Notes: generated from the sequence alone by a model not told the origin. A stretch of DNA of 42,381 nt from Candidatus Nanoarchaeia archaeon (GCA_041484255.1 JBGPHE010000002.1:1-42381); one strand, 5' to 3'; positions 14,801-36,166 are shown, counted from the stretch's first letter. Numbers and translations are program-made.

Positions 14801-17800
14801 CAACAACATCATCACCAACGGCTCGAGCCAGAATAACGGCGTCTTCGCAGACCCCGGCACTATTGGCTCCGGCGTGCTCAAAAACACGCTGGTCGCAAAC
14901 AACACCATCGTCGCGGGCGGAAGCGGCTTCTTTAACGTCGGCGTCGAGTTCATCGCGAACACCAGCACCATCGACAACAACCTCATCAATACCACGGGAG
15001 TGGCCGGCTTCGACTACGGCATCTACGTGAACGGCCTCCAATTGGGAAACATCCCTGCGTTCAACCTGGTCATCACGCGCAACAACATCTCGACCACGGA
15101 CCGCTCCGGAGGCGGCGCCAACAGCCAGAACTTCGGCATTCTGGTGAACAACAACATCCGCAACAGCTATGTCATCGGCAACACCATCACGACCAACGGC
15201 TCCGGCGGCGTCAATATCGGCATCTCGCTGGACGACGACGTCTACAACACCACCGTCGAGAACAACACCGTGGTCACCGGCGGCAAGTATGGCTCCAACT
15301 ACGGCATCGCGCTGCTGTCCGACAGCGCGTTCGACGGCGCGGTCATCGACAACAACGTCACGAACAACACCGTCAACACCACCGGCGACTCCCTGAACAT
15401 CGGCCTCTTCCTGTTCGCGCCGCTGCCGAACGCGAACGTCGTGCAGAACAACCGGCTCCGCATCAACACCGTGCACGCGCGCGGCAACAGCACCAAGGAG
15501 TTCGGCGCGATGCTGTCCGGCAGGGTCTTCTACAACAACCTCACGAACAACCAGCTCATCTCGAACGGCACCGACAACAACGATGGCGTCTTCATCAACA
15601 CGAGCGGCGGCTTTGCCGCGACGGACGACATCATTGAGAACAACAACATCAGCACCTGGGGTAACGGCAGCAGCAACGTCGGCGTCCATCTGACGGATGG
15701 CGTGTCCCAGCACAATATCACCAACAACACCATCGTGACGCACGGCATCGACACCAACCACGGCGTCTTTGTCCAGCTGTCCTCGCCCCGCAACCTCATC
15801 GCGCGCAACAACATCACGATGGCAACGTTCGGCGCGAACAACAGCGGCGTCGATATCTCCGGCAGCACCACGAACATCGTGCGCGACAACCTCATCCGCA
15901 CCAACAACACGCCGTTCGACAACGGCATCCTGCTCACGACCTCGGCGAACAATAACAACGTGAGCAACAACACCATCGTTACGAACGGCACCGTTATCAA
16001 GGTCGTCTCGAGCCAGAGCAACCTCATCAAGGACCAGAACGCGACCACGGTCGCAGGAGGCGGCGTGGTGCTCACGACCGCGACGCTGAACAACTTCACG
16101 GACGACATCATCGCGAGCGACACCGGCATCGGGCTGGAGTTCTCGAACGGCACGTCGAGCGGCACCTTCTTCAGCGGATTCGAGGGCGGAACGCTCTCGC
16201 CGTTAACCACCAGCGGCAACAATGTCTGGGCGATCAACAACACCGACGTCTTCCAGGGCAGCTTCAGCGCGCAGTCGGGCGACATCAACGACTCGCAGAG
16301 CGCGGTGCTCACGCTGGCGCTCTCCGCGGGAGCGGGAACGGTCAGCTTCGCGCGCAAGGTCGAGTCTGAGTCGGGCTTTGACTTCCTGACGTTCAGGATT
16401 GACGGAGTGACGCAGCAGACCTGGTCAGGCCTCCTGCCGTACGCCGTGTTCAACTTTTCGTTCACGAGCGCGAGCACGTTCACCTGGACGTATTCCAAGG
16501 ACAGCTCGGTCACCGTGCAGAACGACACCGCGTTCGTCGACAATATCAACATCTCGTTCGCGGGCGGCGGAGCGCAGAACAACACGTTCACGCGCACGCT
16601 CTTCTACGCCAACCAGACCTGGTTCGTGGTGGGCGCGGGCGACACGAACAACACCGTGCAGAACGTCACCTTTGTCGGCCAGAACGGCAGCATCAACTTC
16701 CCGCCACTCATCCACTTGGGCGAGAGCTCGAACGCGACCATCCAGCGCATGAACAACACGCTCAACCTGTCGTACGTCAACAGCTCGGCGCTGGCCCTGC
16801 CGTTCTTCAACAACACAGCCATCCTGCGCTTCAGCCAGACGCGCTTCATCGACCCGGTGCCGTTCCGCGACCCCGAGGACGATTTGTCGTTCGCGTACTG
16901 CAGGAACTCGACGCCCGGCCACTGCACCAAGCTCGCCTACGTGAACAACGAGTTCGTCATCAATGTCAGCGGCTTCACGTTCTATGCGCTCTCCGAGGGC
17001 CAGGTGAACCTCACCCTGAACAAGACCGACTCTCCTGACCCGGTGCCGGCGAGCAGCCAGCTCAATTACACGATTATCGTGAACAACAGCGGCACGAGCA
17101 CGGCGCTCAACCTGACGCTGCTGGAAATCTACCCGAACGAGGTCATCTTCCTTTCGGCGCAGCCGTCGCCCGAGCCGGGAACGAACAACACGTTCTTCCT
17201 GGGCAACTTCTCGCCCGACAGCCAGATCCAGCTCAACATCACCGTGTTCGTGCGCAACATCACCGCAGACTCGGTCATCAACAACACCGTCAATGCCACG
17301 TTCCTGAACCAGAGCAACGCGACCATCCACGCGAACGTGACCGAAAGCACCACCGTCCTGAACCCCGCGGTGCTGAACATGAGCACCGTCTCCATCGTGA
17401 AGACCGACTCGCCTGACCCGGTCAACGCGAGCAGGAACCTCACGTATGTCATCAACGTGACAAGCACCGGCCCGGGCATCGCGCGCAATGTCTCGGTCAA
17501 TGACACCTATCCGAGCGACGTCATCTTCCTCACCGCGCAGCCGACGCCGATTGCCGGAACGAACAACACGTTCTTCCTCGGAAACATCACGAACGGCACG
17601 AGCGTCCTCATCAACATCACCGTGCTTGTGCGGAATACCAGCGACGGCCTGGTTCTTAACAACAGCGCGAACGTGACGTTCCACAACAACTCGAACTTCA
17701 CGTTCACGGCGGTGGCGACGGCGAACACGACCGTGAACAACCCGCCCGTCATCAACGGAAGCACCATCACCGTGACCAAGTCGAACTCGCCCGACCCGGT

Positions 17801-18722
17801 CTCGGAAGGCGGTACGCTGAGCTACACCATCACCGTCACGAGCAGCGGCACGGCGACCGCGTTCAACGTGACCGTCAATGACACGTACCCGAGCGGCGTC
17901 GTCTTCGACAGTTCGCAGCCAACGCCGATACCCGGAACAAACAACAGCTTCTTGCTCGGCAACCTGACGGCAGGAACGGTTGTCGTAGTCAACATCACCG
18001 TCAATGTAACCGCGCCGGGCGGCAGCACGCTCACCAACAACGTGAACGCCACAGGGCAGAACACCAGCAGCGGCCTCATCAGCGCGACGGCAAGTTCGAG
18101 CGCGACCGTGAGCACGCCCGCAGTGCCCAGCGTAGGCGGCGGAGGCGGCTGGACCACGCCGACCACCGGCGGAGTGAACCGCAGCGCGCTCCCGCCACCG
18201 GCAGCGACCTCAGCCAATGGCGGCGCCTGCATCGAGAGCTGGAACTGCAATGACTGGGGACCGTGCGTCGGCGGAACCGCCTTCAGGACCTGCACGGACT
18301 CGAGCGTCTGCAACACGTTCACCTTGAAGCCCGCGGACCAGAAGACGTGCGAGATGCCCCCCGTACCTGTGCCCGAAGCGCCCAAGATCGAGAAGCCCGA
18401 AGTCCACGTTCCTGAAGTCACCGTGCCCGCGCTGACGCCTGCAAAGGCATTGCCGTGGAAGTGGGTGAGCGCGATTGTCTTGCTGATGATTGCAATCATT
18501 ATCCTTATCGTATCGCTGAGAAGGGGCGGAAAGGAAGGCGCAACGCCTGTTGAGAAGCCCGTTGCAGCGCCGCGCCCTGCGCCCAAGCTGACTCCCTACA
18601 GGCCGCCTGCGCTGCCGAAGCGCGAGGCACTCAAGCTGGACACCAAGGGCATCGCGAACACCCTGAAGGACACGGATAAGATGCTGAAAGAGCTTGAAAA
18701 GGCCCTGAAGAAGCAGCGATAA
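8823..18722 (+). CDS. Giant (3,299 aa) membrane-anchored subtilisin-adhesin. Architecture: N-terminal signal/anchor, Ig/cadherin-like domain, I9-like propeptide, S8 peptidase, three parallel beta-helix modules, four DUF11 repeats, 6-Cys module, TM helix and a short cytoplasmic tail.
   Basis: The gene starts at a GTG. The N-terminal hydrophobic segment is ALIAILLLAGLLGVGVMLW. The S8 triad motifs are ICVLDTGID, HGTHVSGIAAG and GTSMATPHVSGAIAL. Beta-helix turns read NNTI.T.G....GI. DUF11 repeats begin near 12118, 17007, 17388 and 17764. The C-terminal TM helix is WKWVSAIVLLMIAIIILIVSL. Confidence 0.9.
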   Translation: MTRKGVLEEKALIAILLLAGLLGVGVMLWGTGILHAPSGDATGAAVAGANMPPVWTPETTKYVIAKNQQFTLALPAVFSDPEGEPLTFIATQTENLDVQVSNDILTITPEPGFAGERVVTVIASDGTQVTSKRLNIEVGDGQTTPEQVAPQPEAPVSSGEAAPAERTLEKVEASVEQAVLQQPEVQVIVILKQPAAAFAAAADNTKQETLDDQKARVDEAQSAIEQSISAETPAATGAITGAAVEDGNNDIEITRSYDTINAIAVNLTQAGLEQLRNDPNVEQILLDRTFSIQLAQSVPLIDADDVWNRTAGSVNVTGQGESICVLDTGIDFNHSAFTNKIVGGYDYVNNDNSPQDDASNSHGTHVSGIAAGNSSSVKGVAPDARIVPIKVCNGANSCTGSAILAGIDYCNNNSVVYNIDAISMSLGDNGQYNSTTCPTAFESAFATSASLGIIPVAASGNNGNTGGVSYPSCSSYAISVGSSSKADALDSFSNRGGDRFDVLAPGHSIVSSIVGGSTGSLTGTSMATPHVSGAIALIQQSQKSQGKSPLSVEEMRQLFKDTGVAVSGLPRIDVLAALVQLDQNITLNISDNSVTNRTPPSAKVKFASATDLSQFVDCAQVQYNFVSIDSDRCPQYNKSAHITFSGLPGVAATPLLDGEPCDSSICTNTVFSGGVLDFDVTGFSNYSSNSTFTTSTPCATCDLCTVCAAVAGTTCTPLTDIVATTGSNCINVTANNVVIDCAGATITTTSSNSAGVLINGTRNNVSVRNCIFNMSALGISTSTSQPLGAVQNGTIANNVFNIANTGTAYAISVYFNGTNITGNVITNNGTGGGSVIGIFIEPPIYNDTANNVTTISDVHIEYNNISIGSDLFPSEGITLAGQGSANITGYVRNTRDMVINNNKIVLRGPNSGNTIQLGMQIQGINGTMNLTNNTIDMNGTGNFTFAFESADSQSMRVDGLVLNLTQDQTANWFYSSFSSSLGQSLVVSNIVFNDINGSIAYPGPITPNTAVITRQINRTDVNITFNHAFANTTMFPFLSTTANVTLRGLPFTLPKILRSTNEVNYVDCGATCSQKQYFNGTLMFRVSAFTSYIANESGVELSKNDSVDPVNVSNTMTYTILINASANASNVTLTDTLPRKVTFISAQPSPLSGTTDTFIVGNLTNGTEFRVNITVRIGLFRNGTVINNTANITFQNQTGAFLTLNVSENTTVLGLVVASCPVKINGSVVLDRNLQSNDTCITFGNSSIDLDCDGFSLTYGINGLLNDTMAVNVTNSTNSSIVNCVMIKGNVSGFRTYGVGVITSPRLRIENNTIATNGSGSDDGIHISDAGGTNPGGTIRLVTNPNNIYAPSCVANAPGVSYCSVLYVNDFNDRGTKFPLGFGRGGCQVRHKGYHFNTVLQFNLSVLPTSGAMAGIGGEFGGCALNGVEIWHVYVNNNCRQYKSVKFGSTPFVIGENNLTCYMTGIGAGNWRGFGLDAFSYDLPPSNASGTTNVTVKGNSIIASSGNDTNGVFLDADNSTITNNTIVATGNSLDDGIETIGGNAVITGNVILTRAVNQSHALFLSGGNNTLIANNTLSANTTGSAALFMGGSVTNSTVQNNTLASNGTGTSGIYLSSSTGHRFINNTFLNTTGAAVYAELSLSNVFSASTIPAAPITSLLILENDGSINYTQQLSLFTPVNLSQVVNISYNSTFVNTSDAAGSQLNASALLSFFGILDLDADPVIDAGDNGSFALCQGPRCANRNFDPGNSVMTYNVQSFTTYSTKPVQACGVLDYAAENDTSLNIVLTRNVTSNDTCFQVFASNFTLDCQGNTILYGAQGTGAGIAVGNASNITIENCIIRDINASGSAGYGIYFSNSSYGFVINNTITTNGTSSNHGVQVETLAGSSVNNFTIVNNTIMTFGTSAANNGVNIEIQSTNLSSSSNHTVIGNNISTNGTSDNVGINIFASNGNMSNNTVFNNTIRTHGSTGNNNHGVYLREATGALIDSTVAYNNIITNGSSQNNGVFADPGTIGSGVLKNTLVANNTIVAGGSGFFNVGVEFIANTSTIDNNLINTTGVAGFDYGIYVNGLQLGNIPAFNLVITRNNISTTDRSGGGANSQNFGILVNNNIRNSYVIGNTITTNGSGGVNIGISLDDDVYNTTVENNTVVTGGKYGSNYGIALLSDSAFDGAVIDNNVTNNTVNTTGDSLNIGLFLFAPLPNANVVQNNRLRINTVHARGNSTKEFGAMLSGRVFYNNLTNNQLISNGTDNNDGVFINTSGGFAATDDIIENNNISTWGNGSSNVGVHLTDGVSQHNITNNTIVTHGIDTNHGVFVQLSSPRNLIARNNITMATFGANNSGVDISGSTTNIVRDNLIRTNNTPFDNGILLTTSANNNNVSNNTIVTNGTVIKVVSSQSNLIKDQNATTVAGGGVVLTTATLNNFTDDIIASDTGIGLEFSNGTSSGTFFSGFEGGTLSPLTTSGNNVWAINNTDVFQGSFSAQSGDINDSQSAVLTLALSAGAGTVSFARKVESESGFDFLTFRIDGVTQQTWSGLLPYAVFNFSFTSASTFTWTYSKDSSVTVQNDTAFVDNINISFAGGGAQNNTFTRTLFYANQTWFVVGAGDTNNTVQNVTFVGQNGSINFPPLIHLGESSNATIQRMNNTLNLSYVNSSALALPFFNNTAILRFSQTRFIDPVPFRDPEDDLSFAYCRNSTPGHCTKLAYVNNEFVINVSGFTFYALSEGQVNLTLNKTDSPDPVPASSQLNYTIIVNNSGTSTALNLTLLEIYPNEVIFLSAQPSPEPGTNNTFFLGNFSPDSQIQLNITVFVRNITADSVINNTVNATFLNQSNATIHANVTESTTVLNPAVLNMSTVSIVKTDSPDPVNASRNLTYVINVTSTGPGIARNVSVNDTYPSDVIFLTAQPTPIAGTNNTFFLGNITNGTSVLINITVLVRNTSDGLVLNNSANVTFHNNSNFTFTAVATANTTVNNPPVINGSTITVTKSNSPDPVSEGGTLSYTITVTSSGTATAFNVTVNDTYPSGVVFDSSQPTPIPGTNNSFLLGNLTAGTVVVVNITVNVTAPGGSTLTNNVNATGQNTSSGLISATASSSATVSTPAVPSVGGGGGWTTPTTGGVNRSALPPPAATSANGGACIESWNCNDWGPCVGGTAFRTCTDSSVCNTFTLKPADQKTCEMPPVPVPEAPKIEKPEVHVPEVTVPALTPAKALPWKWVSAIVLLMIAIIILIVSLRRGGKEGATPVEKPVAAPRPAPKLTPYRPPALPKREALKLDTKGIANTLKDTDKMLKELEKALKKQR
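9700..10560 (+). other. Subtilisin-like (S8) peptidase domain within giant protein 2.
   Basis: The catalytic Asp codon is 9801-9803 (VLDTG). The His codon is 9906-9908 (HGTHV). The Ser codon is 10395-10397 (GTSMATP). An oxyanion Asn lies in AASGNNG. An I9-like segment (RSYDTINAIAVNLTQAGLEQLRNDPNVEQILLD) lies upstream. Confidence 0.85.
16990..18110 (+). repeat. Three consecutive DUF11-type repeats (~380 nt each) in giant protein 2.
   Basis: The repeats read NLTLNKTDSPDPVPASSQLNYT..YPNEVIFLSAQPSP, VSIVKTDSPDPVNASRNLTYV..YPSDVIFLTAQPTP and ITVTKSNSPDPVSEGGTLSYT..YPSGVVFDSSQPTP. Confidence 0.8.
18455..18517 (+). other. C-terminal transmembrane helix of giant protein 2.
   Basis: WKWVSAIVLLMIAIIILIVSL is followed by RRGGKEG and a 60-aa Lys/Pro-rich tail. 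Confidence 0.75.
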
Positions 18723-19034: not shown

Positions 19035-19336
19035 TAGTCAGCACCCCGCGTGACTTGAATCTGCACGATGAGTGCGGCGATGAGGAATGCGAGGATGATG
19101 CTGGGGATGACATGCGTGAGCCAGGGCGTGCTCCAGATGCCGAAGGTCTTCAGTGCGCCGACAAACTCCTCGACGCAGAAGAACACCAATGCCCAGAGCA
19201 GGTAGCGCCAGGCGCGGAGGCTCTTGCGCTCGCGGGCCTGCTTGAACATGCTGAACGCGATGCCGCCGGCGACGAACGAGAGGATGACTCCCGCGATCTG
19301 GCCGCTGCCGTAAATCCAGTCATACGTGGTCAGCAT
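19034..19336 (-). CDS. Small (100 aa) three-TM membrane protein, paralog of 18723-19034.
   Basis: I place the start at the internal ATG 19336 (MLTTYDWIYGSG...). The longer ORF-track N-terminus is Ser/Pro/Arg-rich and overlaps the divergent promoter region. A TATA-like GTTTAAATAG on the minus strand (19358-19368) lies ~27 nt upstream. Confidence 0.55.
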   Translation of the reverse strand: MLTTYDWIYGSGQIAGVILSFVAGGIAFSMFKQARERKSLRAWRYLLWALVFFCVEEFVGALKTFGIWSTPWLTHVIPSIILAFLIAALIVQIQVTRGAD

Positions 19337-19383
19337 ACCGCTCTTCGCGCCCAAGTCGCTATTTAAACTTTTCGGGACAGAAA

Positions 19384-19393
19384 GATTTATAGG
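19384..19393 (+). promoter_or_regulatory. TATA box (GATTTATAGG) for aglB. A second TATA (19358-19368) faces the minus-strand small membrane gene.
   Basis: The box centre is ~27 nt upstream of the ATG at 19416, matching the spacing seen at the other promoter calls listed here. Confidence 0.45.
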
Positions 19394-19415
19394 GGGCGTT
19401 TGCGCAGAAGCAGGC

Positions 19416-21386
19416 ATGGGACGGTGGCTGAATACAGAACGCCAGGCGATACTGCTCAGTCTCCTCATCATTCTCGCGGTCGGAGGCATCTCGCTGTGGC
19501 AGACGACTAAGCTGGCAGCCATCGACGACCAGGTCAGGCACGCATTGCCGGACGGCACGCCTGCCGAGCTGCAGGCCTTGACGCAGAACTATCAATCGCT
19601 CTACCGTACCGAGTACGGATTGCCGTACGTGTATGATTTTGACTCCTATTATTTCCTCGCGCAGGCGGCGGGAACGCTGCACCAGCCGTGGAACCTCTAT
19701 GTCGCGCTGGAAACTGAGGCATACCGCATCCTGCACGGCAGCAATGCGCTCGTAACCGCCTCTGACGCGGCATTCTTCCTGCCCTTTGTCTTCGGATTGC
19801 TCACACTGACTGCATTTTTCTTCCTTGCGCGCCGCGTGACCGGCAGCACCGAGGCTGCGTTCTTCGCAGGATTGATTCTTGCGCTCCAGCACCGCTTCTT
19901 TGCCGCGACTGCGGCAGGCATGGGCGACACGCAGGCCATCAATCTGCTGTTCAGCGTGCTGTTTGTGCTTATCGTCTTCGTCGCGATCGATGCGTGGCAC
20001 GCAAAGCAGCAGAAGAAAGCAAAAATCACTGCAGCGCTTGCGATTCTCGTGTTTGCGCTGTTCTCGCTTGCCTGGCACGGCGCGCCGTACATTCTTGTCG
20101 TTGTTGCAGCGGGAACAGCTGCACTGCTTGCGCTGCGCTGGCTGCACGACCGCACGAACAAGCGCTTGAGTGCAATGCTTATCGCAATTGTCGTCACTGC
20201 ATTGATCGCGTTTGCTTTCTTCTGGAAGCGCAACATCTGGTTTGTCCTGTTCCCGCAGCAGGGCGTGCTCACGCGGCAGGTTGCCGAGCTCATGCAGGGC
20301 ACGCTGCCATTGCTCGCGCTCGCGTTCGGCGGCAACGTGATGTTCGGCATCGCGCTCGTCGTATTTGCGCTGCTCGCGTGGCAGAATGTCAAGAAGTCGT
20401 CGTTCAAGCGCCTCACCATTCTTTCCTGGTTTGCGCTGCTGACGGTCGCAACCTACATTTCACTGCGATTCATGTACTACGCGCTTCCTCCTGCGGCGAT
20501 TCTTGCAGGCATCGGCTTCCAGCAGGCGTCGAAAGGCGTCCAAAGCATGGTTGGAAAGCAACGTTGGAAGCGCGCGGCAGTGTTCGCAAGCTGCGTCATC
20601 ATCATTGCGGCGCTGTTGATTCCCAATCTTCAGACATCGCAGCGCAATGTCCTGCCGCAGATGCAGGACGCGATGGTTTCTGTCGGCAGGGAGATCGACG
20701 CGCAGGCCTTGCCTGACGCACGCATCATCACGTGGTGGGATACCGGCCACTTGTGGCGCTATGCGGCAAAGCGCGAGCCGTTCCTCGACGGCAAGGGCTT
20801 GACGCCGCGCACGCTGTACTGGCTCACCGGCAGAGCATTCCTCACGCACAATGTCTCTGAAGCGCTGAACGCGTGGAGCGCGATGCTGTGCAACGCGCCG
20901 GAACAGCTGCAGCCGCGCCGCGGCGACACAACATTGCTTGCGCAGCGCGAGAATTGCAGCAATGAAGGCGTTATTGTTGTTGATGAACGCCTGTTGAAGG
21001 ACACGAACAACATCGCAGACCTCGTGCACGCGTACGATCCGCCGTTTTCCATAGGCTCGCTCGCCAATCTTGAGATGCAAAACTGCGCACGAACAGGAGA
21101 ACTGCTGGAATGCGGCAATCTGACGGTCAATTTCACGAGCATGAGCGCGAACGGCATGCCTGTGCGCGTCATCGTGAACGGAACGCGGCGCGAAACGCAG
21201 AATAACGCGACGAGCATTGTCGTCGTGTACACGTCCGGCAATGGCGCGTATGCGTTTGAGAGCCCGCGCGCGATGGCAGACACCGTGCTCGTGCGGTTGT
21301 TCACCGGAGAATCGCTTGGGTTGCTGCCGATTGCGGCCGCGGACGACCCTGAGCGCATCGTCGCGTACCGGTGGACGCCTTCGTAA
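19416..21386 (+). CDS. aglB: Archaeal oligosaccharyltransferase, STT3/AglB family (656 aa).
   Basis: The catalytic WWDxG motif is present as ITWWDTGHLWRY. The first-loop acidic motif is YVYDFDSYYF. The second acidic motif is AAGMGDTQA. About 13 hydrophobic helices are followed by a soluble C-terminal domain. The start is set at MGRWLNTERQ (19416), because the ORF-track start at 19326 overlaps the divergent gene and promoter. Confidence 0.85.
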   Translation: MGRWLNTERQAILLSLLIILAVGGISLWQTTKLAAIDDQVRHALPDGTPAELQALTQNYQSLYRTEYGLPYVYDFDSYYFLAQAAGTLHQPWNLYVALETEAYRILHGSNALVTASDAAFFLPFVFGLLTLTAFFFLARRVTGSTEAAFFAGLILALQHRFFAATAAGMGDTQAINLLFSVLFVLIVFVAIDAWHAKQQKKAKITAALAILVFALFSLAWHGAPYILVVVAAGTAALLALRWLHDRTNKRLSAMLIAIVVTALIAFAFFWKRNIWFVLFPQQGVLTRQVAELMQGTLPLLALAFGGNVMFGIALVVFALLAWQNVKKSSFKRLTILSWFALLTVATYISLRFMYYALPPAAILAGIGFQQASKGVQSMVGKQRWKRAAVFASCVIIIAALLIPNLQTSQRNVLPQMQDAMVSVGREIDAQALPDARIITWWDTGHLWRYAAKREPFLDGKGLTPRTLYWLTGRAFLTHNVSEALNAWSAMLCNAPEQLQPRRGDTTLLAQRENCSNEGVIVVDERLLKDTNNIADLVHAYDPPFSIGSLANLEMQNCARTGELLECGNLTVNFTSMSANGMPVRVIVNGTRRETQNNATSIVVVYTSGNGAYAFESPRAMADTVLVRLFTGESLGLLPIAAADDPERIVAYRWTPS

Positions 21387-22812: not shown

Positions 22813-23886
22813 TCAGCACGTGCGCGCGTAATTGTTGATGGCGGTGCGGAATGCGTCGGTCTCTTTCGCGGCGATGCTCGCAAGCAGCTGCTCGATGCCG
22901 ATGAGGATGCCGTCCACGGCGGTCTTGCCGTGCCCTTTGAACACCGGCTTTTCGCTGCACGGGAAGGTCGCGACTCCGTACTGCGCGGCCCTGGCCTTGA
23001 CGCGGTGGCCTGCGCTGCGCATCATTGCGCCGCCGATTTTCTCCCAGGGCTTGCCGCGCTTAATCTCGTATTTGAGCTCCTCGAACGCGTATTTCGCGGC
23101 CGCGGAAAAGAGCTTGATGAACTGGTTGCCCTGCCTGCCGTCGGTGACGATGACGTCGACGGGGCGGGAATCGTGCATGCCGTTGTCCCGGTCGTAGATG
23201 CACGGCTCGGGCTCGACATTGCCGATAAAGCGGTCGGCGAGCTCGGGAACGTCCTTGGCGTCGGGGAACTGCGCCGCAAGCCGCTTGTACGCCTCCTGCT
23301 CTTCCGGCGTTCCCTTATTGCTTTCCACGCCGATGTTCAGCAGGCCGATCCGGACAGACAAGCGCTTGCCGACCGCGCGCGCGTACATCCTGCCGATGTG
23401 CGCATAGGCGACGTAATTGTCCGCGCTGATTTCCGGAACCGCGCCGACGTCGAGCATGTACGCGGAATCGTGCTTCGCGGTGTCGCGGGACTTGGGAGTG
23501 GCCGCAAGGAGCGGCATGAGCTTGAGGCTCGGGAACGCGTACGCGCATGCCTCGAAGGGCTTGATGTATTTGTGCACGCACGGCACGAGCGTGTCGGTTT
23601 TCGAGAGCGTGTAGAATCCTGCGAGGTCGCCTTCCGCAGTCATTTGAGCGAGCTTTTTGGTCGCGCCGTATTTGGCGTCGTCGCCCTGGACAAGGGTGAT
23701 GTTGTGGCGCTGAGGAAGAAGATTCTGCAGGGTGAACGGATTGCCGACCACGAAGAATGCGGTGTCCTGGTGCAGGCCTGCCGCGACCCGGACCGCATGG
23801 GCGACGCGCTCAGGGGGCAGAACGCCATTATGCGGGTCGCCGCCGTATGCATCTACCCCAACAATCGTGTCAATGCCCATCGCCAC
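22813..23886 (-). CDS. plsX: PlsX-like phosphate acyltransferase family protein (PTA/PTB superfamily), 357 aa.
   Basis: The blocks are colinear with bacterial PlsX: VGVDAYGGD (cf. AVDAMGGD), MLDVGAV (LLDVGAN), IGLLNIGVESNKG (VGLLNVGTEDKKG), FIGNVEPEP (FIGNVEARD), DVIVTDGRQGNQFIK (DVVVTDGFTGNVTLK) and FKGHGKT (IKAHGSS). A TATA CCTTAATAAAG on the minus strand lies ~28 nt upstream of the ATG at 23886. Confidence 0.7.
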   Translation of the reverse strand: MAMGIDTIVGVDAYGGDPHNGVLPPERVAHAVRVAAGLHQDTAFFVVGNPFTLQNLLPQRHNITLVQGDDAKYGATKKLAQMTAEGDLAGFYTLSKTDTLVPCVHKYIKPFEACAYAFPSLKLMPLLAATPKSRDTAKHDSAYMLDVGAVPEISADNYVAYAHIGRMYARAVGKRLSVRIGLLNIGVESNKGTPEEQEAYKRLAAQFPDAKDVPELADRFIGNVEPEPCIYDRDNGMHDSRPVDVIVTDGRQGNQFIKLFSAAAKYAFEELKYEIKRGKPWEKIGGAMMRSAGHRVKARAAQYGVATFPCSEKPVFKGHGKTAVDGILIGIEQLLASIAAKETDAFRTAINNYARTC

Positions 23887-24079: not shown

Positions 24080-25609
24080 ATGGGGAAGGTCGTTCAAGTC
24101 GAGCCGAAGGCGGCAGAGCCTACGCTGAATCTTGCGCTGGACACGCTCGCCAAGGGCAAGCAGGCGTTTGTGTTCGTGAATACGAAGCGCTCTGCGGAAA
24201 AGACTGCAGAGGACATCGCCAAAAAGGCGAAGATGGAGACCGAGCACACGCGCGAGCTCTCCGAGCAGGTGCTGAAAGCGCTGCAAAAACCGACCCAGCA
24301 GTGCGAGCGGCTCTCGCGCTGCGTCAAACAAGGCATCGCGTTCCACCACGCAGGCTTGCATGCCCGCCAAAAGGAGCTGATCGAGGACCATTTCCGCAAC
24401 GGCACCATCAAAATCATCTGCTGCACGCCGACGCTGGCCGCGGGCGTCGACTTGCCCGCATTCCGCACCATTATCCGCGACGTGAAGCGCTTCTCGGGCC
24501 ACGGCATGGTGGACATTCCCGTGCTCGAATTCTTACAAATGGCAGGCCGCGCAGGCAGGCCGAGCTTTGACCCGTACGGCGAGGCTATTCTCGTCGCGTC
24601 GAGCGACGCCGAGAAGGACGCATTGTTCGAGCATTACGTGCACGGGCTTCCCGAAGACATCTATTCCAAGCTTGCCGTCGAGCCCGTGCTGCGAACATAC
24701 GTGCTCTCGCTCATCGCCGCAAAGGTCGTGCAGTCGCGCGAGCAGATTTTCGAGTTCTTCGGCCGCACGTTCTGGGCGCACCAGTTCAAGGATGTTGAAA
24801 AGCTCGGCAAGATCATCGAGAAAATGCTGAAACTGCTGGAAGACTGGGAATTCGTCGGCAAGACTGACGATTCCTACCGCGCGACCCTGCTCGGCAAGCG
24901 CATCGCCGAGCTCTATATCGACCCGCTCACGGCGCACCAGTTCGTCATCGCATTGGAACGGACAGTGGCGCTGAAGCAGCGGCCGATGTCGTGGCTGCAT
25001 TTGATCGCCTGCACGTTGGAGATGCGTCCGCAGTTGCGCGTGCGCGCCAAGGAATATGATGAGGTTCAGGAAAAGCTCGCGCAGTACGGCAATTCGCTGC
25101 TGCTGCCCGAACCGTCGATGTTCGAGCCTGAATTCGACGATTATCTGAACGGCTTCAAGACCGCGCTGATGCTGCAGGACTGGACTGAGGAAAAGGACGA
25201 GGAATACTTGTACGAGCACTACGATGTCCGCCCCGGAGAGACGCGCGCCAAGCTCACGACGGGCGATTGGCTGCTGTACGGTCTCGGCGAAGTCGCCCGT
25301 ATCAGGCAGCAGATGGAATTGCTCAAGGATATTCAGCGCATCCGCTATCGTCTGCGCTACGGCGTCAAGGAAGAGTTGCTCGCGTTACTGCGTCTTGAAG
25401 GCATCGGACGTATGAGGGCGCGCACGCTGTTCAAGGCAGGGATCAAGGACTTGGGCGACGTCAGAAAGGCGCAGCTGGGCTCATTGGAGCAGCTGCTCGG
25501 CAAGAAGATCGCGGCAAGCATCAAAAAGCAGGTCGGCGAGGACGTTCCTGATATCGAGGAACTGCCTGAGCCGTCGGCAAACAAGTTCGCGCAGTATGAG
25601 AAGGAATAA
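24080..25609 (+). CDS. hel308: Ski2-like/Hel308-family helicase C-terminal part (RecA2, winged helix, ratchet, HhH), 509 aa. It lacks the RecA1 ATPase half.
   Basis: Motif IV-like FVFVNTKRSAEKTA, motif V CCTPTLAAGVDLPAFRTII and motif VI QMAGRAGRPSFDPYGEAILV are present. A C-terminal HhH-like LEGIGRMRARTLFKAGI is also present. No Walker A (GKT) or DExH motif is found, because the protein begins about where RecA2 starts in full-length (~700 aa) Hel308. Confidence 0.85.
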   Translation: MGKVVQVEPKAAEPTLNLALDTLAKGKQAFVFVNTKRSAEKTAEDIAKKAKMETEHTRELSEQVLKALQKPTQQCERLSRCVKQGIAFHHAGLHARQKELIEDHFRNGTIKIICCTPTLAAGVDLPAFRTIIRDVKRFSGHGMVDIPVLEFLQMAGRAGRPSFDPYGEAILVASSDAEKDALFEHYVHGLPEDIYSKLAVEPVLRTYVLSLIAAKVVQSREQIFEFFGRTFWAHQFKDVEKLGKIIEKMLKLLEDWEFVGKTDDSYRATLLGKRIAELYIDPLTAHQFVIALERTVALKQRPMSWLHLIACTLEMRPQLRVRAKEYDEVQEKLAQYGNSLLLPEPSMFEPEFDDYLNGFKTALMLQDWTEEKDEEYLYEHYDVRPGETRAKLTTGDWLLYGLGEVARIRQQMELLKDIQRIRYRLRYGVKEELLALLRLEGIGRMRARTLFKAGIKDLGDVRKAQLGSLEQLLGKKIAASIKKQVGEDVPDIEELPEPSANKFAQYEKE

Positions 25610-26062
25610 TCAGATCAGCTTTTTCTCGAGCTCGCCGAGCACGTGAATCGGAGTGACGGCTGCGCTCGGCTCGAAGCTGATGGCGGCCAAGCGCGCGCCC
25701 TTAAAGTGGTTGATAACCAGGTGGTCGTACAGGCGCTGCTGCAGCTGCAGGCAGTCGCTGTTATTGGCGAAGCGAAGCAGGAGGTAGAAGCGCCCTTCCT
25801 CGCGCGCCTTGATGTCCATGCTCATCTCGCCAGCCTCGGTAGGAATCGTGATGCCGTCGATGAATCCCTTGACTCCCGCGACCATCAGCTTCTGCTCGTT
25901 TTGAGAAGCGCGCTCATACCGCTCGCCCAAATCGAGCAGCGCCGTGCCGAAGGGCTTCTTGGCGCGCGTTGCTTTGCCGATATAGAGCGGGAGCTTCTCG
26001 TTCCTGAAGCATTCTCCGGTTACGTACAGCGTTTCGCGGTCCGTCGAGGGTTCGGGATTCAT
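25610..26062 (-). CDS. Hypothetical 150-aa soluble protein, translationally coupled to the upstream GGDEF gene.
   Basis: Its ATG at 26062 overlaps the TGA of the GGDEF gene (ATGA). I recognise no motif in the product. Composition is ordinary, unlike the antisense artefact ORFs. Confidence 0.55.
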   Translation of the reverse strand: MNPEPSTDRETLYVTGECFRNEKLPLYIGKATRAKKPFGTALLDLGERYERASQNEQKLMVAGVKGFIDGITIPTEAGEMSMDIKAREEGRFYLLLRFANNSDCLQLQQRLYDHLVINHFKGARLAAISFEPSAAVTPIHVLGELEKKLI

Positions 26063-27174
26063 TGTTTCTCTTCCCCCTTATAAGGCGGCGTTGCTTTTAA
26101 ATATTGTCCTTGATCGGAGCGGAAGTACGCGTACATGTCGTCCGACATGCCGATCGATTCGGGACCATAGATGTTGTCGCGGATGCGTTCGCGAAGAACG
26201 CTTTCGGAGACGACGCGGTTGCGGCCGAGCTTCTTCGCGGCATACAGGCACGCGTCGGTGAGCGTGAAAAACGCCTTGGTGTCTACAGGGCGGTACTGTT
26301 TGACGCCGAGGCTGACGGTGATCGGAATTGGCTTGCCGTCGAAGGTGAACGGATAGTTCTGGATGTGCTTGCGGATGTTCTCGGCAGTCTGCACCGCACC
26401 CGATTCGTCGGTTTCAGGCAGCAGGACAACGAGCTCGTCGCCGCCGTAGCGTCCGAAAATGTCGGTTTCCCTGCGGAGGATGCTATCGCGGACGGTGGCC
26501 GCCATCTCCTTGAGCACGTAGTTGCCCGCAGGGTGTCCGCCGGGTCCGTCGTTGACGCGCTTGAAGTTGTCCATGTCAAAGACGATGAGCGAGAGCGGTC
26601 GCTGGTATTTCTTGGCCTCGTTGATTTCGCGCATGATGGCGCCTTCTTCCTGGTCGTTTCCTTCCATATAGCGCTGGTTGAAGCAGCCGGTCAGGTTGTC
26701 GGAGTATGCAATGGTGCGGAAATACTGCTTTTCCTCCTCGATGCGCTTGGCCTCGAGGGCGTTCTTTTGCGCAATGCGCTGCTGCGCGGCAACGGCTTCC
26801 GCCATCCTCGTCTGGAGCGTGGCGTTCTCGCGCGTGTTCGAGACGTTCATCACGACGAGCCTCAGGACGCTCTGCGCGCTTTTCGCGGCGGAGTCGCGCG
26901 TCGCCTGGTCGTTGGTGCGTTTGTGGGTGTAGTATAAGTGATCCAACGCGCTGTGGAGCGCGCCCTGTGCGATTTCGCGGTCGCGTCCGACGCTCGGCAC
27001 GCGTTTGAGCATGTTCTCGATGGTCTCGATCGTGCAGCCATCCTGACTGTCGCTGCCGACCACGAATTTGTAGAAGTCGCCGAGCGGCTTGTCGCAGAGC
27101 TCCACCAAGTAGTCCAAAAGCTGAATGGTGCGCGTATCCTTGCGGTTGCGCTTGGTGCTCTCGTGGTCTGCCAT
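26059..27174 (-). CDS. GGDEF-domain nucleotide cyclase (diguanylate-cyclase family) with an unknown ~170-aa N-terminal domain and a coiled-coil stalk, 371 aa.
   Basis: It reads LSLIVFDMDNFKRVNDGPGGHPAGNYVLKEMA...RRETDIFGRYGGDELVVLLPET...SLGV...LTDACLYAAKKLGRNRV. The active-site variant is GGDEL. An RxxD (RETD) lies exactly 5 residues upstream, which is the I-site geometry. The start is set at MADHESTK (27174), because the ORF-track N-terminus runs into tRNA-Arg. A TATA lies ~29 nt upstream. Confidence 0.8.
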   Translation of the reverse strand: MADHESTKRNRKDTRTIQLLDYLVELCDKPLGDFYKFVVGSDSQDGCTIETIENMLKRVPSVGRDREIAQGALHSALDHLYYTHKRTNDQATRDSAAKSAQSVLRLVVMNVSNTRENATLQTRMAEAVAAQQRIAQKNALEAKRIEEEKQYFRTIAYSDNLTGCFNQRYMEGNDQEEGAIMREINEAKKYQRPLSLIVFDMDNFKRVNDGPGGHPAGNYVLKEMAATVRDSILRRETDIFGRYGGDELVVLLPETDESGAVQTAENIRKHIQNYPFTFDGKPIPITVSLGVKQYRPVDTKAFFTLTDACLYAAKKLGRNRVVSESVLRERIRDNIYGPESIGMSDDMYAYFRSDQGQYLKATPPYKGEEKQ

Positions 27175-27197: not shown

Positions 27198-27207
27198 CTT
27201 TATAAAG
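27198..27207 (-). promoter_or_regulatory. TATA box (CTTTATAAAG) for the GGDEF operon.
   Basis: This palindromic TATA is centred ~29 nt upstream of the ATG at 27174. Confidence 0.45.
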
Positions 27208-27244
27208 CTTCTGGTTATTAACTACTAGAAGGTGACGAATAAAA

Positions 27245-27318
27245 CGCCCCTGCTGGGATTTGAACCCAGGTCGACGGGACCGCAACCCGCCAGTCTATCC
27301 AAGCTAGCCTACAGGGGC
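27245..27318 (-). tRNA. tRNA-Arg (anticodon GCG), no encoded CCA.
   Basis: The minus-strand sequence is GCCCCTGTAGGCTAGCTTGGATAGACTGGCGGGTTGCGGTCCCGTCGACCTGGGTTCAAATCCCAGCAGGGGC(G). The acceptor and T arms are perfect. The anticodon stem is GCGGG/CCCGT with loop TTGCGGT. The D stem has one mismatch by my hand fold. Confidence 0.85.
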
Positions 27319-27345
27319 AATAGTGTGAAAATGACTGCAGGTGCT

Positions 27346-33695: not shown

Positions 33696-33768
33696 AGCCC
33701 CGTCGTCTAATGGCTAAGGATAGCGGGCTTTGGACCCGTTGATGTCGGTTCGAATCCGGCCGGGGCTA
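33696..33768 (+). tRNA. tRNA-Gln (anticodon TTG), no encoded CCA.
   Basis: The sequence is AGCCCCGTCGTCTAATGGCTAAGGATAGCGGGCTTTGGACCCGTTGATGTCGGTTCGAATCCGGCCGGGGCTA. The anticodon loop is CTTTGGA. The TATA TTTTTATAT lies ~30 nt upstream. Confidence 0.9.
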
Positions 33769-34385: not shown

Positions 34386-35174
34386 TCAGGAATGCTCGTC
34401 CGGGTGGACGCTCTTTCTGCGGAGCGCGCTCGCGCGGTGGAGCGTCTTGATGCTTCCGGCATCGGTCCAGTCTCCTGAGATGACTGTGTAGCGCATCTCG
34501 CCGAGCGCGATGTACGCGTTGCTGACGTCGGTGATTTCCAGCTCGCCGCGCCAGGACGGCTTGAGCGTTTTGATGATGTCGAACACGCGATGGTCGTACA
34601 AGTATGCGCCCGTGACCGCGTATCTGCTTTTGGGAGTGATCGGTTTTTCCTCGATGCTGACGATTTTGTCGCCCGAAAGCTCGGCGATGCCGTACTTGGC
34701 GCGCCGAATGCCGTTGATGTCCTCGAACAGGCGGTCTTCGGAGACTTCCTTGAGGAAGACGTGCGCTCCGCCGGTGAAGTTCTTGACTGCTTCTGCGAGG
34801 AAGGATTCATCTTCGTACACGTTATCACCTAAGACAACGGCAACAGGATCGTTGCCGACAAACGTGCGCGCGAGCCCGAGCGCTTCGGCGATGCCGCCTG
34901 CGCCGTCCTGCACGCCGAACGCGATGGAGCGCGCAGGCTCTGCGATGCCCACGGTCTCGTGGAGTTTCTTGCCCGAGCCGATGAGCCTGCCGATAGCGTC
35001 GAAATGCTCGCCGCCGGTGACGATGAAGATGTCCTTGACGCCTGCCTTGAGCAGGTTGTTGAGCGGGTAGTAGATCATGGGCTTGTCATAGACCGGCAGC
35101 AGGTGCTTGTTCGTCACCCACGTGAGCGGCCTGAGCCGCGAGCCTGTTCCTCCTGCGAGCACAACTCCTTTCAT
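34386..35174 (-). CDS. rmlA: Glucose-1-phosphate thymidylyltransferase-like sugar nucleotidyltransferase (short RmlA type), 262 aa.
   Basis: It reads MKGVVLAGGTGSRLRPLTWVTNKHLLPVYDKPMIYYPL...VLGDN...EKP. The ATG at 35174 overlaps the rmlB TGA (ATGA). Confidence 0.85.
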   Translation of the reverse strand: MKGVVLAGGTGSRLRPLTWVTNKHLLPVYDKPMIYYPLNNLLKAGVKDIFIVTGGEHFDAIGRLIGSGKKLHETVGIAEPARSIAFGVQDGAGGIAEALGLARTFVGNDPVAVVLGDNVYEDESFLAEAVKNFTGGAHVFLKEVSEDRLFEDINGIRRAKYGIAELSGDKIVSIEEKPITPKSRYAVTGAYLYDHRVFDIIKTLKPSWRGELEITDVSNAYIALGEMRYTVISGDWTDAGSIKTLHRASALRRKSVHPDEHS

Positions 35175-36142: not shown

Positions 36143-36166
36143 TCCTGTGCGCGTATCGAAGAAATA

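Follow-up and report, generated by a model that had tools for sequence, protein, structure and literature searches.

Organization of the two-gene cassette

The window analyzed here is a stretch of 42,381 nt of DNA from a Candidatus Nanoarchaeia archaeon (JBGPHE010000002.1:1-42381). Two overlapping ORFs lie on its minus strand. The upstream ORF (26059-27174, ATG at 27174, stop codon at 26059-26061) encodes a 371-aa GGDEF-family cyclase, and the downstream ORF (25610-26062) encodes a 150-aa protein, referred to here as the partner. The ATGA coupling of the two genes described in an initial annotation of this DNA was borne out by the ORF calls, which overlap by 4 nt. A longer ORF of the cyclase with a TTG start runs into a tRNA-Arg(GCG) gene (27244..27319, minus strand; ARAGORN and Rfam), and the ATG was therefore taken as the true start. 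The cyclases of related loci likewise start with MAD. The tRNA gene marks the upstream edge of the two-gene cassette. A tRNA-targeted mobile insertion was considered and dropped because a search for repeats flanking the cassette gave none that were att-like or otherwise meaningful.

A TATA-like box, TTTATAAA (27199..27206, minus strand), was read from the sequence with its center ∼28 nt upstream of the cyclase ATG; it forms a putative archaeal promoter, and the mRNA would be leaderless or near-leaderless. A purine-rich, Shine-Dalgarno (SD)-like string, GGGGGAAGAG (26068..26077, minus strand), is located within the 3′-terminal part of the cyclase gene and precedes the partner ATG by 5-14 nt. 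In the nine loci whose junctions were examined, the cyclase and partner genes either overlap by 4 nt or are separated by ≤28 nt, and an SD-like string is present; strings resembling GGAGG, GAGG, or GGGGG lie before the partner start in most of the eight loci other than the window. These strings suggest that the two genes are co-transcribed and that their translation is coupled. The C-terminal portion of a Hel308-type helicase gene (24080..25609, plus strand) converges on the cassette and abuts the partner stop codon with zero spacer, forming the downstream edge. This helicase comes after the partner in every locus of sufficient length, and it is probably context rather than a part of the cyclase/partner system.

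Domain structure and catalytic residues of the cyclase

The cyclase gene is a real GGDEF gene, as the initial annotation stated. Residues 156-320 matched PF00990 over model positions 1-161 of 161 (E 8e-30, 104 bits vs. a cut-off of 23.8), and TIGR00254 gave E 1.6e-38 and 132 bits (cut-off 37.4). A phmmer search of PDB sequences with the cyclase returned 47 GGDEF matches. Based on the Pfam and PDB matches, the catalytic domain was assigned to residues 156-323 (26206..26709, minus strand). The motifs quoted earlier were all found: FDMDNFKRVND (199-209), RETD (235-238), and RYGGDEL (242-248).

The region upstream of the catalytic domain had been described as a single sensor domain of ∼170 aa. The full-length AF2 model, of low confidence (pLDDT 65), gives instead a helical region of ∼90 aa followed by a helix of ∼70 residues that leads into the GGDEF domain. 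The all-helical region, residues 1-95 (26890..27174, minus strand; helices 5-27, 31-39, 49-57, and 65-86, pLDDT 39-77), had zero Pfam or NCBIfam matches and is possibly an input domain; the quality of the model did not permit a fold search of this region. Residues 96-155 (26710..26889, minus strand) make up most of a predicted helix spanning 90-158. By analogy with stalked diguanylate cyclases they probably form a coiled-coil stalk that dimerizes the enzyme, and the NCBIfam SiaD model (stalk plus GGDEF) covers residues 64-321. Due to the low confidence of the full-length model, a dimerizing function of the stalk is only suggested.

Key residues were tabulated from a MAFFT alignment of 124 sequences (115 bacterial relatives and nine archaeal cyclases). 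The active-site hairpin GGDEL (26431..26445, minus strand), located from the ORF translation and this alignment, corresponds to GG(D/E)EF. G244, G245, D246, and E247 are present, together with the metal-binding D200 (PleD D327), the guanine-contacting N208 (PleD N335), the phosphate-binding K314 and R318 (PleD K442 and R446), as well as the transition-state K205 (PleD K332). D200, K205, N208, D209, H214, R242, G245, D246, E247, and K314 are conserved in all nine aligned archaeal cyclases; one to three of the nine deviate at each of D202, G244, and R318. The terminal Leu of the hairpin does not stand out as the deviation it was first taken for, the last position being I, L, or M in 21 of the 115 bacterial relatives (F 94, I 19, L 1, M 1). 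The residues of the catalytic site are intact apart from the base-specifying Asp, which is replaced by Asn. Judged by these residues, the window cyclase is apparently catalytically competent, and activity is predicted.

The inhibitory site and the PleD R313 position

The primary inhibitory site RETD (R235-E-T-D238; 26461..26472, minus strand) is canonical as originally described, with five residues between RETD and GGDEL. In the MAFFT columns the I-site Arg is present in eight of the nine archaeal cyclases and the Asp in all nine; the spacing looks non-canonical by eye in three of them (L006, L019, and L022). R268 is at the likely position of PleD R390.

PleD R313 acts in trans in the I-site cross-linking of GGDEF domains (PMC12943098). 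At the aligned position the window cyclase has Glu186 (26617..26619, minus strand). Glu is found here in 9/9 archaeal cyclases, vs. R in 108 and K in five of the 115 bacterial relatives.

Base-specifying positions

The initial annotation placed Asn at the position of PleD D344 by hand alignment, and phmmer alignments to solved structures confirmed this assignment. The segment GHPAGNY of the cyclase aligns with GHPGGDY (6hbz), GHNIGDQ (5llw), and GHLVGSQ (6d9m). The residue is Asn218 (codon AAC, 26521..26523, minus strand) at the guanine-specifying position, and counting in the 6d9m alignment equates it with GacA Ser348. The same count places Gln167 (26674..26676, minus strand) at the cross-dimer base-stacking position (GacA Tyr304, Idiomarina Arg537). 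The roles of the selectivity and cross-dimer positions have been described previously (PMC6456294, PMC9140294).

The D344 position is Asp in 115/115 bacterial relatives in the 124-sequence alignment. It is also Asp, accompanied by a GGDEF motif, in eight of the 10 archaeal family members; only the window and L028/L029 have Asn. The L003 codon at the Asn218 site is GAC (Asp). Asn218 is therefore, as far as the aligned sequences go, an allele-level feature and not a family trait. The window and L028 cyclases are just 37% identical, and L028 combines the Asn with Asp at the cross-dimer position in an otherwise intact site. The cross-dimer position is nearly always basic in the bacterial relatives (K 64, R 50, H 1) vs. 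non-basic in 7/10 archaeal members (Q, G, G, Q, Q, K, R, R, Y, D).

A non-Asp residue at the selectivity position had suggested an analogy to the Hypr enzymes. Hypr enzymes are defined by Ser/Thr at that position (PMC6456294, PMC9140294), so the analogy is only partial, the window residue being Asn and not shared by the whole family. Gln occurs among the cross-dimer residues of cGAMP-producing Hypr enzymes (PMC6456294). As a whole, the archaeal cyclase family looks like ordinary diguanylate cyclases. With Asn218 and Gln167 at both base-reading positions, the nucleotide preference of the window allele is probably relaxed or shifted off strict GTP. The Asp-to-Asn change might also simply lower the activity. 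D344 is reported to be essential for GGDEF activity (PMC7288161). No account of what an Asp-to-Asn change does in a GGDEF active site was found in the literature searched.

The partner is predicted to be a degenerate GGDEF-fold protein

The partner had been called unknown, and at the level of sequence models this description holds. The single sequence had no Pfam, NCBIfam, or PADLOC match, and phmmer against the PDB gave chance matches only (E about 1). The fold, however, is that of a GGDEF domain. The AF2 model of the partner reached pLDDT 91.3 and pTM 0.86, and the top 47 matches of a Foldseek search of the PDB were all GGDEF domains (TM 0.51-0.76, E down to 7e-6). Comparison of 20 partner sequences with the 124-sequence GGDEF alignment by hhalign gave a probability of 88% (E 2.8e-6), in register; a first hhalign run, with six partner and five cyclase sequences, had been too shallow (2.6%). 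A search of the PDB with the partner profile found GGDEF domains in six of the nine matches listed, including the top two (E 0.009 and 0.029; range to 0.45).

By structure model and profile alignment, the partner is a GGDEF-fold protein that stands alone and is catalytically degenerate; it founds a small family that lacks annotation. Approximately 14 true cluster representatives were found among 1.84 billion proteins, and family lengths are 136-163 aa. One candidate relative from the exhaustive search, P0135 (1262 aa, eight "stretches"), was rejected as a repetitive false positive.

Of the structural core, the partner retains the wide turn (DxxT), an Arg preceding the hairpin, and the I-site strand Asp. 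The GGDEF hairpin is gone, as are the phosphate-binding loop and the two base contacts: in the profile alignments, KAR-EEGRFYLLLR stands in place of GRYGGDELVVLLP, and the partner has no FKxxND..GH..GD segment. The D327 position carries a variable acidic or other residue. In the RxxD motif the Asp (D83) is kept and the Arg position is M, I, V, or L in all members, so the partner could not bind c-di-GMP in the manner of PelD or PopA. A conserved charged cluster (D83, K85, R87, E89, and R97) is located on the hairpin strands, and the window partner keeps all family-conserved residues. The earlier proposal that this protein is a receptor or effector is thus modified: a degenerate GGDEF fold favors a regulatory pseudo-subunit over a classical effector.

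Partner Lys30 (25973..25975, minus strand) aligns with PleD Arg313 in a weak HMMER alignment of the partner profile to PleD (E 0.45), anchored by one conserved Pro, and Lys is found at this position in 16/20 family members. Set against the Glu of all nine aligned archaeal cyclases, this alignment suggests complementary residues at the R313 position.

Conservation of the pair and its archaeal context

The downstream gene is conserved beside homologous cyclases in 11 of 12 informative related loci, counting L010, which retains just a C-terminal cyclase fragment; a 13th locus (L026) was too short to score for the pair. L027 is the exception: its cyclase is absent and its partner is truncated at the N terminus. 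Where it occurs, the pair occupies the same chromosomal site, and it stays adjacent even though partner identity drops to ∼25%. Since these loci form one syntenic lineage and the helicase neighbor is equally constant, the gene order alone is weak evidence of function.

Marker genes in the window are archaeal, which argues against a bacterial contig. They include uS15 with the archaeal/eukaryotic N-domain (PF08069), the Hel308-type helicase, an ATP-dependent DNA ligase, STT3, Alg14, and an Alg13-like glycosyltransferase (PF04101). Related loci also hold a fragment of a diphthamide-synthesis gene. No EAL, HD-GYP, or PilZ genes were detected in the window, and a search of these 42 kb for genes of c-di-GMP phosphodiesterases or receptors was negative. 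A metagenome scan returned only two loci, both already found. Scans of viral contigs and of a viral fold library gave nothing beyond generic phage GGDEF proteins. In PADLOC neither the cyclase nor the partner matched; the helicase neighbor matched HamB-type models through its generic helicase domain only. The operon contains no signal-activated effector, as it consists of two genes only and the second is without an effector-like domain.

Rapid divergence of the cassette

Between genomes that share 96-97% identity in the flanking genes, the identity of the pair is 50-60%. Between the window and L003, amino acid identity is 69% in the N-terminal region of the cyclase, 57% in the GGDEF domain, and 50% in the partner, vs. 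96-97% in the flanking genes. Nucleotide identity is 51-75% inside the cassette and 85-100% outside. The edge is sharp: the 150-nt block 27356-27207, which includes the tRNA gene, is 100% identical to L003, and the next block is 65% identical. In a second comparison (L019 vs. L028) the cassette is 30-32% identical at the amino acid level, vs. 68-99% for other genes. Altogether, cassette divergence is far above that of the backbone in three close genome pairs, despite the fixed locus. The dN/dS of the cassette genes is 0.33-0.43, compared with 0.04-0.11 in the flanks.

The window catalytic domain lies on a long branch. It is 54-57% identical to those of L003, L001, L008, and L006, whereas L003, L001, and L008 are 71-75% identical among themselves. 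Two insertions are unique to the window cyclase, a GP that follows ND and a stretch of six residues within helix alpha0. With 18 sequences, the alignment proved too divergent for pattern analysis. Uniformly faster evolution of the cassette was rejected, since the L003 and L001 cyclases are 73% identical against a backbone of 78%; the excess divergence would be episodic or due to allele replacement.

In certain genome pairs, high divergence is likewise seen in other genes nearby, such as a PlsX-like gene and some hypothetical genes.

A proposed cyclase and pseudo-subunit module

We propose, with a probability of about 45%, that the two genes encode a cyclase and pseudo-subunit module in which the partner docks on the GGDEF domain of the cyclase. 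The module would be a lineage-specific archaeal two-gene operon, with the cyclase followed by a translationally coupled GGDEF-fold partner. The first gene would encode a soluble cyclase composed of a helical N-terminal region, a long dimerizing helix, and a catalytically complete, product-inhibitable GGDEF domain. Going by their residues, most cyclases of the family should make c-di-GMP from two GTP. The partner would dock as a pseudo-subunit either directly or through product bound at the I-site, using Lys30 where the archaeal cyclases replaced the trans Arg (PleD R313) by Glu. Docking may keep the catalytic domain out of a productive homodimer, or alternatively it may relay a signal. The Glu/Lys complementarity suggests that product feedback runs via the hetero-partner and not via a second catalytic domain.

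The partner could instead be a receptor or effector that binds the cyclic dinucleotide at a new site on the degenerate GGDEF scaffold and signals onward without regulating the cyclase. Degenerate GGDEF nucleotide sensors are well known, e.g., CC3396 and YybT (PMC12943098, PMC7288161), the charged hairpin-strand residues are conserved, the partner appears to be co-transcribed with the cyclase, and no other receptor gene was seen in the window. We consider this rather unlikely, because the RxxD Arg is missing in all family members, a protein of only 136-163 aa carries no output domain, and the Glu/Lys complementarity is better explained by contact with the cyclase. A further reading is an obligate asymmetric heterodimer of one active and one dead GGDEF-fold subunit, with a non-canonical product and an antiviral or host-interaction role in genetic conflict. 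It would account for the sharp divergence island, the low L019-L028 identity, the raised dN/dS, and the unusually variable base-reading positions with Asn in two distant alleles. It is very unlikely in our estimate: the partner is without nucleotide-binding elements and so could not hold an acceptor nucleotide like Cas10 Palm1 or cyclase C2, the cassette occupies one fixed chromosomal position in every genome rather than a mobile island, dN/dS is below 1, and the divergent PlsX-like and hypothetical genes show that the cassette is not alone. The defense module envisaged in the initial annotation received no direct support either, with no PADLOC matches, effector domain, or relatives on viral contigs. 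The very rapid divergence of the pair may keep a conflict-type role open. The boldest form of this idea makes the asymmetric complex of cyclase and dead twin the working unit of a new, conflict-driven archaeal cyclic-nucleotide system, in which alleles such as those of the window and L028 would make products other than c-di-GMP and the partner would serve as a gatekeeper or sensor of matching specificity; this, too, is very improbable.

Decay of the window copy has also to be weighed. Asp218Asn would kill GTP recognition, and together with the two insertions and Phe248Leu it would reflect relaxed selection on a dispensable, horizontally acquired bacterial gene. The essential role of D344, the long branch, the unique insertions, and the loss of the cyclase in L027 point in this direction. 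All other catalytic, phosphate-binding, and I-site residues are nevertheless intact, both ORFs are complete, dN/dS is 0.33-0.43 rather than about 1, and the window partner keeps the conserved residues of its family. L028, at 37% identity, independently has Asn in an otherwise intact site, which argues for a tolerated or selected variant, and we regard decay as decidedly unlikely. Contamination from a bacterial or chimeric contig is effectively refuted. The nearest GGDEF domains beyond the family are bacterial (∼46% identical, mostly Myxococcota FHA-GGDEF proteins), and a scan of GTDB representative genomes with the cyclase gave bacterial GGDEF loci only. The gene order with the archaeal ligase, Hel308, uS15, STT3, and the Dph fragment recurs, however, on independent assemblies, including contigs of different samples with lengths of 390 kb and 875 kb. 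Identity of the flanks to L003 stays at 87-100% as far as the cassette edges, and the GC3 of both genes (0.80-0.81) matches that of their neighbors.

c-di-GMP signaling is treated as a bacterial invention. A 2023 review considered neither c-di-GMP nor its enzymes established in any archaeon, and no detection of c-di-GMP in archaea is on record (PMC10249747). A GGDEF cyclase with an apparently intact catalytic site at a fixed locus across a rare archaeal lineage offers a place to test for archaeal GGDEF-made nucleotides, and the Asn alleles are natural variants at a position that decides which nucleotide GGDEF enzymes use. The partner indicates that GGDEF-fold proteins can diverge past sequence models and yet persist as stand-alone subunits, so censuses of c-di-GMP signaling may miss such components. 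If the hetero-complex reading were true, the pair would be the first cyclic-dinucleotide signaling or immunity module with GGDEF chemistry in Archaea.

Comparison with known systems

The window cyclase shares its domain (PF00990) and its metal-, phosphate-, and ribose-contacting residues with PleD, WspR, and Idiomarina PadC. Like canonical diguanylate cyclases, it has RxxD five residues before GG(D/E)EF and a (predicted) helical stalk. It differs from them in the archaeal host, in Asn at the guanine-specifying position, and in an N-terminal region that resembles nothing known. At the family level, the differences are the Glu in place of PleD R313 and the mostly non-basic cross-dimer position. 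The Hypr enzymes Geobacter GacA and Bdellovibrio Bd0367, which make 3′,3′-cGAMP, resemble the window cyclase in the non-Asp selectivity residue, in the non-Arg (Gln167) cross-dimer stacking residue, and in the central Asp of GGDEx, which is required in Hypr enzymes. GacA (6d9m) was the second-best PDB sequence match. The window cyclase is unlike them in having Asn instead of Ser/Thr, a trait not common to its family, in a motif that ends in Leu rather than GGDE[F/Y], and in being without a receiver domain; the archaeal system has no known cGAMP riboswitch or other receptor.

PelD and PopA are degenerate GGDEF domains used as nucleotide sensors. The partner resembles these and LapD, CC3396/PdeA, YybT/GdpP, and GdpS in having a GGDEF fold without the catalytic motif, and LapD GGDEF was among its fold matches (6pwj, 6pwk, and 3pjw). 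The known domains belong to multidomain proteins and remain recognizable to sequence models, whereas the partner stands alone and escapes both Pfam and NCBIfam. The RxxD site is intact in PelD and PopA, which use it, and is missing from the partner. The partner has also lost the whole P-loop and base-contact segment, and it is encoded directly behind an apparently active cyclase.

In Pseudomonas SiaD-SiaC, the activity of a stalked GGDEF cyclase is controlled by a small protein partner, an arrangement similar to that proposed for the archaeal pair. The SiaD model aligns to the stalk and catalytic domain of the window cyclase, and the SiaD-SiaC structure 7e6g was found among both the cyclase sequence matches and the partner fold matches. 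SiaC is not known to have a GGDEF fold and binds to the SiaD stalk, whereas the archaeal partner resembles a paralogous copy of the catalytic domain's own fold. Catalytic and degenerate copies of a nucleotide-cyclase fold are encoded together in Cas10 (Palm1/Palm2) and in mammalian adenylyl cyclase (C1/C2). There the degenerate half helps bind the substrate and both halves reside in one polypeptide. The archaeal halves are encoded by separate genes, the dead copy is without recognizable nucleotide-binding residues, and by this analogy they would form a putative heterodimer.

The GGDEF Cyclase and Its Base-Reading Positions

The cyclase ORF (371 aa, minus strand) was read from the ATG at 27174 to a stop codon at 26059-26061. 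The ATG was taken as the start because a longer, TTG-initiated version would collide with the upstream tRNA-Arg gene at 27244-27319, and because all relatives begin with MAD... in the alignment. Residues 156-320 cover PF00990 end to end (E 8e-30), and the protein matches TIGR00254 at 132 bits. Its sequence matched 47 solved GGDEF structures, the best being 6hbz and the second 6d9m (the Hypr enzyme GacA of Geobacter). We concluded that the window cyclase belongs to the GGDEF family. Residue counts were taken from an alignment of this protein with eight archaeal relatives and the 115 best bacterial matches. D159 (of the DxLT turn), D200, K205, N208, D209, H214, R242, G245, D246, E247, and K314 are conserved throughout; the window cyclase and nearly all other aligned sequences also have R235 and D238 of the I-site, D202, G244, and R318.

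Both active-site deviations pointed out in the initial annotation are present, but their weight is unequal. Leu248, the last residue of GGDEL, is a conservative change: among the bacterial relatives this position is F (94), I (19), L (1), or M (1). Asn218 stands out, since the same position is Asp in 115/115 bacterial relatives. Counting residues along the 6d9m alignment places Asn218 on GacA Ser348, N208 on Asn339, and Gln167 on Tyr304, which confirms Asn at the guanine-specifying position (PleD D344). In GTPases an Asp binds the guanine, and by this analogy Asn218 may weaken the selection of GTP. GacA Tyr304, the cross-dimer residue, stacks on the base held by the other protomer; Arg occupies this position in 94% of predicted diguanylate cyclases (PMC6456294).

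The AF2 model of the whole cyclase is weak (pLDDT 65) and has an all-helical N-terminus with a single helix (90-158) leading into the GGDEF domain. Judging from this helix layout, the predicted "sensor" is a ∼90-aa region plus a stalk, instead of the single N-terminal domain of ∼170 aa first proposed.

Only four full-length relatives (40-57% identity) were found among 5.8 billion clustered proteins; beyond them the matches are bacterial GGDEF domains at ∼46% identity, over the domain only. Additional members were found via the partner, giving a comparison set of ten archaeal cyclases. Eight of the ten have Asp at the D344 position; the window cyclase and that of locus L028 (6934-8004; same gene in L029 at 2010-3080) have Asn. 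The L028/L029 protein reads GHAAGNYVLKE around this Asn, has GGEEF as its motif, carries Asp as the cross-dimer residue, and is only 37% identical to the window cyclase. The L028 backbone is nearest to that of locus L019 (helicase 90% identical), whose cyclase has Asp at the D344 position. The Asn is a recurrent variant at the allele level, not a family hallmark. The cross-dimer residues of the ten archaeal cyclases are Q, G, G, Q, Q, K, R, R, Y, and D; the bacterial relatives always have K, R, or H. Given the Asp in 8/10 and the mixed cross-dimer residues, the archaeal family resembles ordinary diguanylate cyclases whose base-reading positions have loosened. The window cyclase has neither the Asp-344 of a strictly guanine-specific cyclase nor the Ser/Thr of Hypr enzymes. 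The nearest 115 bacterial GGDEF domains all carry GGEEF, and 9/10 archaeal members have GGDEF/AGDEF or, in the window, GGDEL. FHA-GGDEF (Myxococcota) and GGDEF with PF20975 are the nearest bacterial architectures; no donor lineage for a transfer was identifiable among these 115 matches.

A Cryptic GGDEF Fold in the Partner

Searches with the partner as a single sequence found nothing, and the initial annotation had left this 150-aa protein unassigned. Inspected by eye, the N-terminus (TD-x-x-T-x-Y ... KA...KPFG) looks like the beginning of a GGDEF domain. An AF2 model built from seven sequences only (pLDDT 91.3, pTM 0.86) has its strands and helices ordered as in a GGDEF domain, and the first 47 Foldseek matches in the PDB are GGDEF domains (TM 0.51-0.76, E down to 7e-6, 10-17% identity). 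When a 20-member partner alignment was compared by hhalign with a 124-member GGDEF-domain alignment, the probability was 88% (E 2.8e-6). The register places partner D8 and T11 on the DxLT turn, P37 on the conserved Pro preceding strand 1, D83 on the I-site Asp, and R87 on the Arg preceding GGDEF. An HMM of 18 partners gave nine weak matches among PDB sequences, six of them GGDEF domains (5euh, E 0.009; DosC, 0.029; PleD, 0.45). In the alignments the partner lacks the FKxxND..GH..GD segment, the GGDEF hairpin (the corresponding stretch reads AR-EEGRF), and the Arg of RxxD. The protein is a cryptic GGDEF fold with all catalytic elements missing. Among 1.84 billion representatives, an exhaustive HMM search recovered no more than ∼14 true members, each a stand-alone protein of 136-163 aa.

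Linkage of the Two Genes

The partner ORF (25610-26062, minus strand) overlaps the cyclase ORF by ATGA, and a purine-rich GGGGGAAGAG lies 5' of its ATG. Upstream of the cyclase, a TTTATAAA box (27206-27199, minus strand) is centred ∼28 nt 5' of the ATG, a spacing that would fit an archaeal promoter giving a leaderless mRNA. In nine loci with compared junctions, the partner either overlaps the cyclase by 4 nt or starts 2-28 nt after it, in most cases behind an SD-like string; in addition, L028/L029 have a 4-nt overlap. In locus L010 a C-terminal fragment of the cyclase lies directly upstream of the partner; locus L026 is too short for adjacency to be judged. The arrangement is kept while partner identity drops to 22-27% and backbone identity to 58%.

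The exception is L027 (NCBI GCA_040961635.1, JBFOMZ010137249.1, 1-1194), the only locus with a partner minus the upstream cyclase. Here the partner comes immediately after a tRNA-Arg-like sequence; it is truncated at the N-terminus to 136 aa and has lost the DxxT motif, and no remnant of the cyclase is present at the locus. The gene before them resembles, by eye, a Ham1/ITPase-type NTP pyrophosphatase. Since all loci are syntenic, adjacency on its own counts for little; some weight is added by the coupled starts and by the joint loss or truncation.

Host and Surrounding Genes

The contig is archaeal, and the possibility of a bacterial origin raised by the initial annotation is not borne out. 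The window encodes uS15 with the archaeal/eukaryotic N-domain (PF08069), an ATP-dependent DNA ligase including its N-terminal DNA-binding domain, the C-terminal two-thirds of Hel308 including archaeal domain 4, STT3, FtsZ, Alg14, and an Alg13-like glycosyltransferase. Contigs of relatives, as long as 390 kb (Ga0394876_0000024) and 875 kb (Ga0247727_10000001), carry the same genes plus a diphthamide-synthesis fragment, and the GC3 of the cyclase and partner genes equals that of their neighbours. No EAL, HD-GYP, or PilZ domain was found in the 36 window ORFs scanned. An Rfam scan of the window gave five tRNAs and nothing else; three lie within 5 kb of the cassette (both genes), and two tRNA-Gln genes (anticodons TTG and CTG; 33696-33768 and 37064-37136, both plus strand) are 3.3 kb apart.

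The convergent Hel308-type gene (24080-25609, plus strand), whose stop abuts that of the partner with no spacer, covers positions 223-712 of a 739-position model and begins within the second RecA domain. All relatives share this form, at 491-524 aa. The N-terminal half is not encoded next to it, and a tRNA-Ile lies upstream; the gene looks like a conserved split or truncated Hel308. Two giant plus-strand ORFs (2904 aa, 49-8763; 3299 aa, 8823-18722) occupy the first 18.7 kb. Weak Big_9, NosD, and CLIPPER matches of their counterpart in locus L001 (3270 aa) suggest very large proteins of the cell surface or of an adhesin-like type. Both the giant ORFs and the split genes are in keeping with a DPANN-like archaeon of small genome size.

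At 22813-23886 (minus strand) lies a PlsX-like gene of bacterial type (FA_synthesis domain), which is highly divergent between some relatives (L003-L001, 28%; L001-L008, 70%); one relative, L022, has a bacterial-type NAD-dependent glycerol-3-phosphate dehydrogenase (13704-14750). The Alg14-like and Alg13-like (Glyco_tran_28_C) genes (39479-39955 and 39952-40392, plus strand) are adjacent and overlap; they make up a split glycosyltransferase pair of the kind seen in eukaryotes and archaea. STT3 (19326-21386) and nucleotide-sugar genes (34386-36169 and 37245-38090) lie in their vicinity. In L028 the place of the DNA ligase in relatives (4866-6933, ∼2 kb) has no called gene; the ligase may be disrupted there, or gene calling may have missed it.

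Divergence of the Cassette

Between the window and related locus L003, the helicase and ligase proteins are 96 and 97% identical, compared with 60% for the cyclase and 50% for the partner. Every 150-nt block from 27206 to 25620, a stretch bounded by the tRNA and the helicase stop, shows 51-75% nucleotide identity, and every block outside the cassette shows 85-100%. The dN/dS ratio is 0.33-0.43 in the cassette vs. 0.04-0.11 in the flanks, and dS is ∼1.0 vs. 0.16-0.47. The L019 and L028 cassettes are 30-32% identical, vs. 68-99% for seven other genes. L001 and L008 differ similarly (cassette ∼70%, helicase 98%), but their PlsX-like gene is likewise at 70%. The L003 and L001 cyclases (73%) track the backbone (78%), whereas other genome pairs show the excess, which argues that the divergence is episodic. 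The window GGDEF domain is about equidistant (54-57%) from those of L003, L001, L008, and L006, and in its N-terminal region the window cyclase shares 69% identity with L003. The excess would stem either from allele replacement by recombination or from bursts hitting the catalytic domain and the partner together.

Such episodic divergence is also what might suggest a conflict-type role for the pair, and it is the sole feature in favour of one. The pair has no matches to defence models and no effector domain, viral searches found no viral relatives, and the cassette sits at a fixed locus.

Proposed Mechanism

Taken together, the observation of an archaeal GGDEF protein in the initial annotation is confirmed and its interpretation is supported in part. 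New here are the cryptic GGDEF-fold partner behind an archaeal cyclase, a complementary Glu/Lys change between the two, and the rapid joint divergence of the pair within a rare archaeal lineage. The mechanism of the pair is hypothetical and is drawn from sequence comparison with PleD. In PleD, R313 is supplied by the adjacent GGDEF domain to I-site-bound c-di-GMP and cross-links the two domains in an inactive arrangement (PMC12943098). At the R313 position the bacterial relatives have Arg (108/115) or Lys (5/115), the archaeal cyclases have Glu (9/9 aligned), and the partner family has Lys (16/20). The cis half of the site, RxxD, is kept in the window, L001, L003, L008, and most other archaeal cyclases, and R268 in 5/9 aligned archaeal cyclases including the same four. 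Because of the Glu/Lys pattern and the retained cis half, we favour a mechanism in which the partner would be a pseudo-subunit docking on the GGDEF domain of the cyclase. The pattern is as expected if the partner, rather than a second catalytic domain as in PleD, were to close this site or contact helix alpha0.
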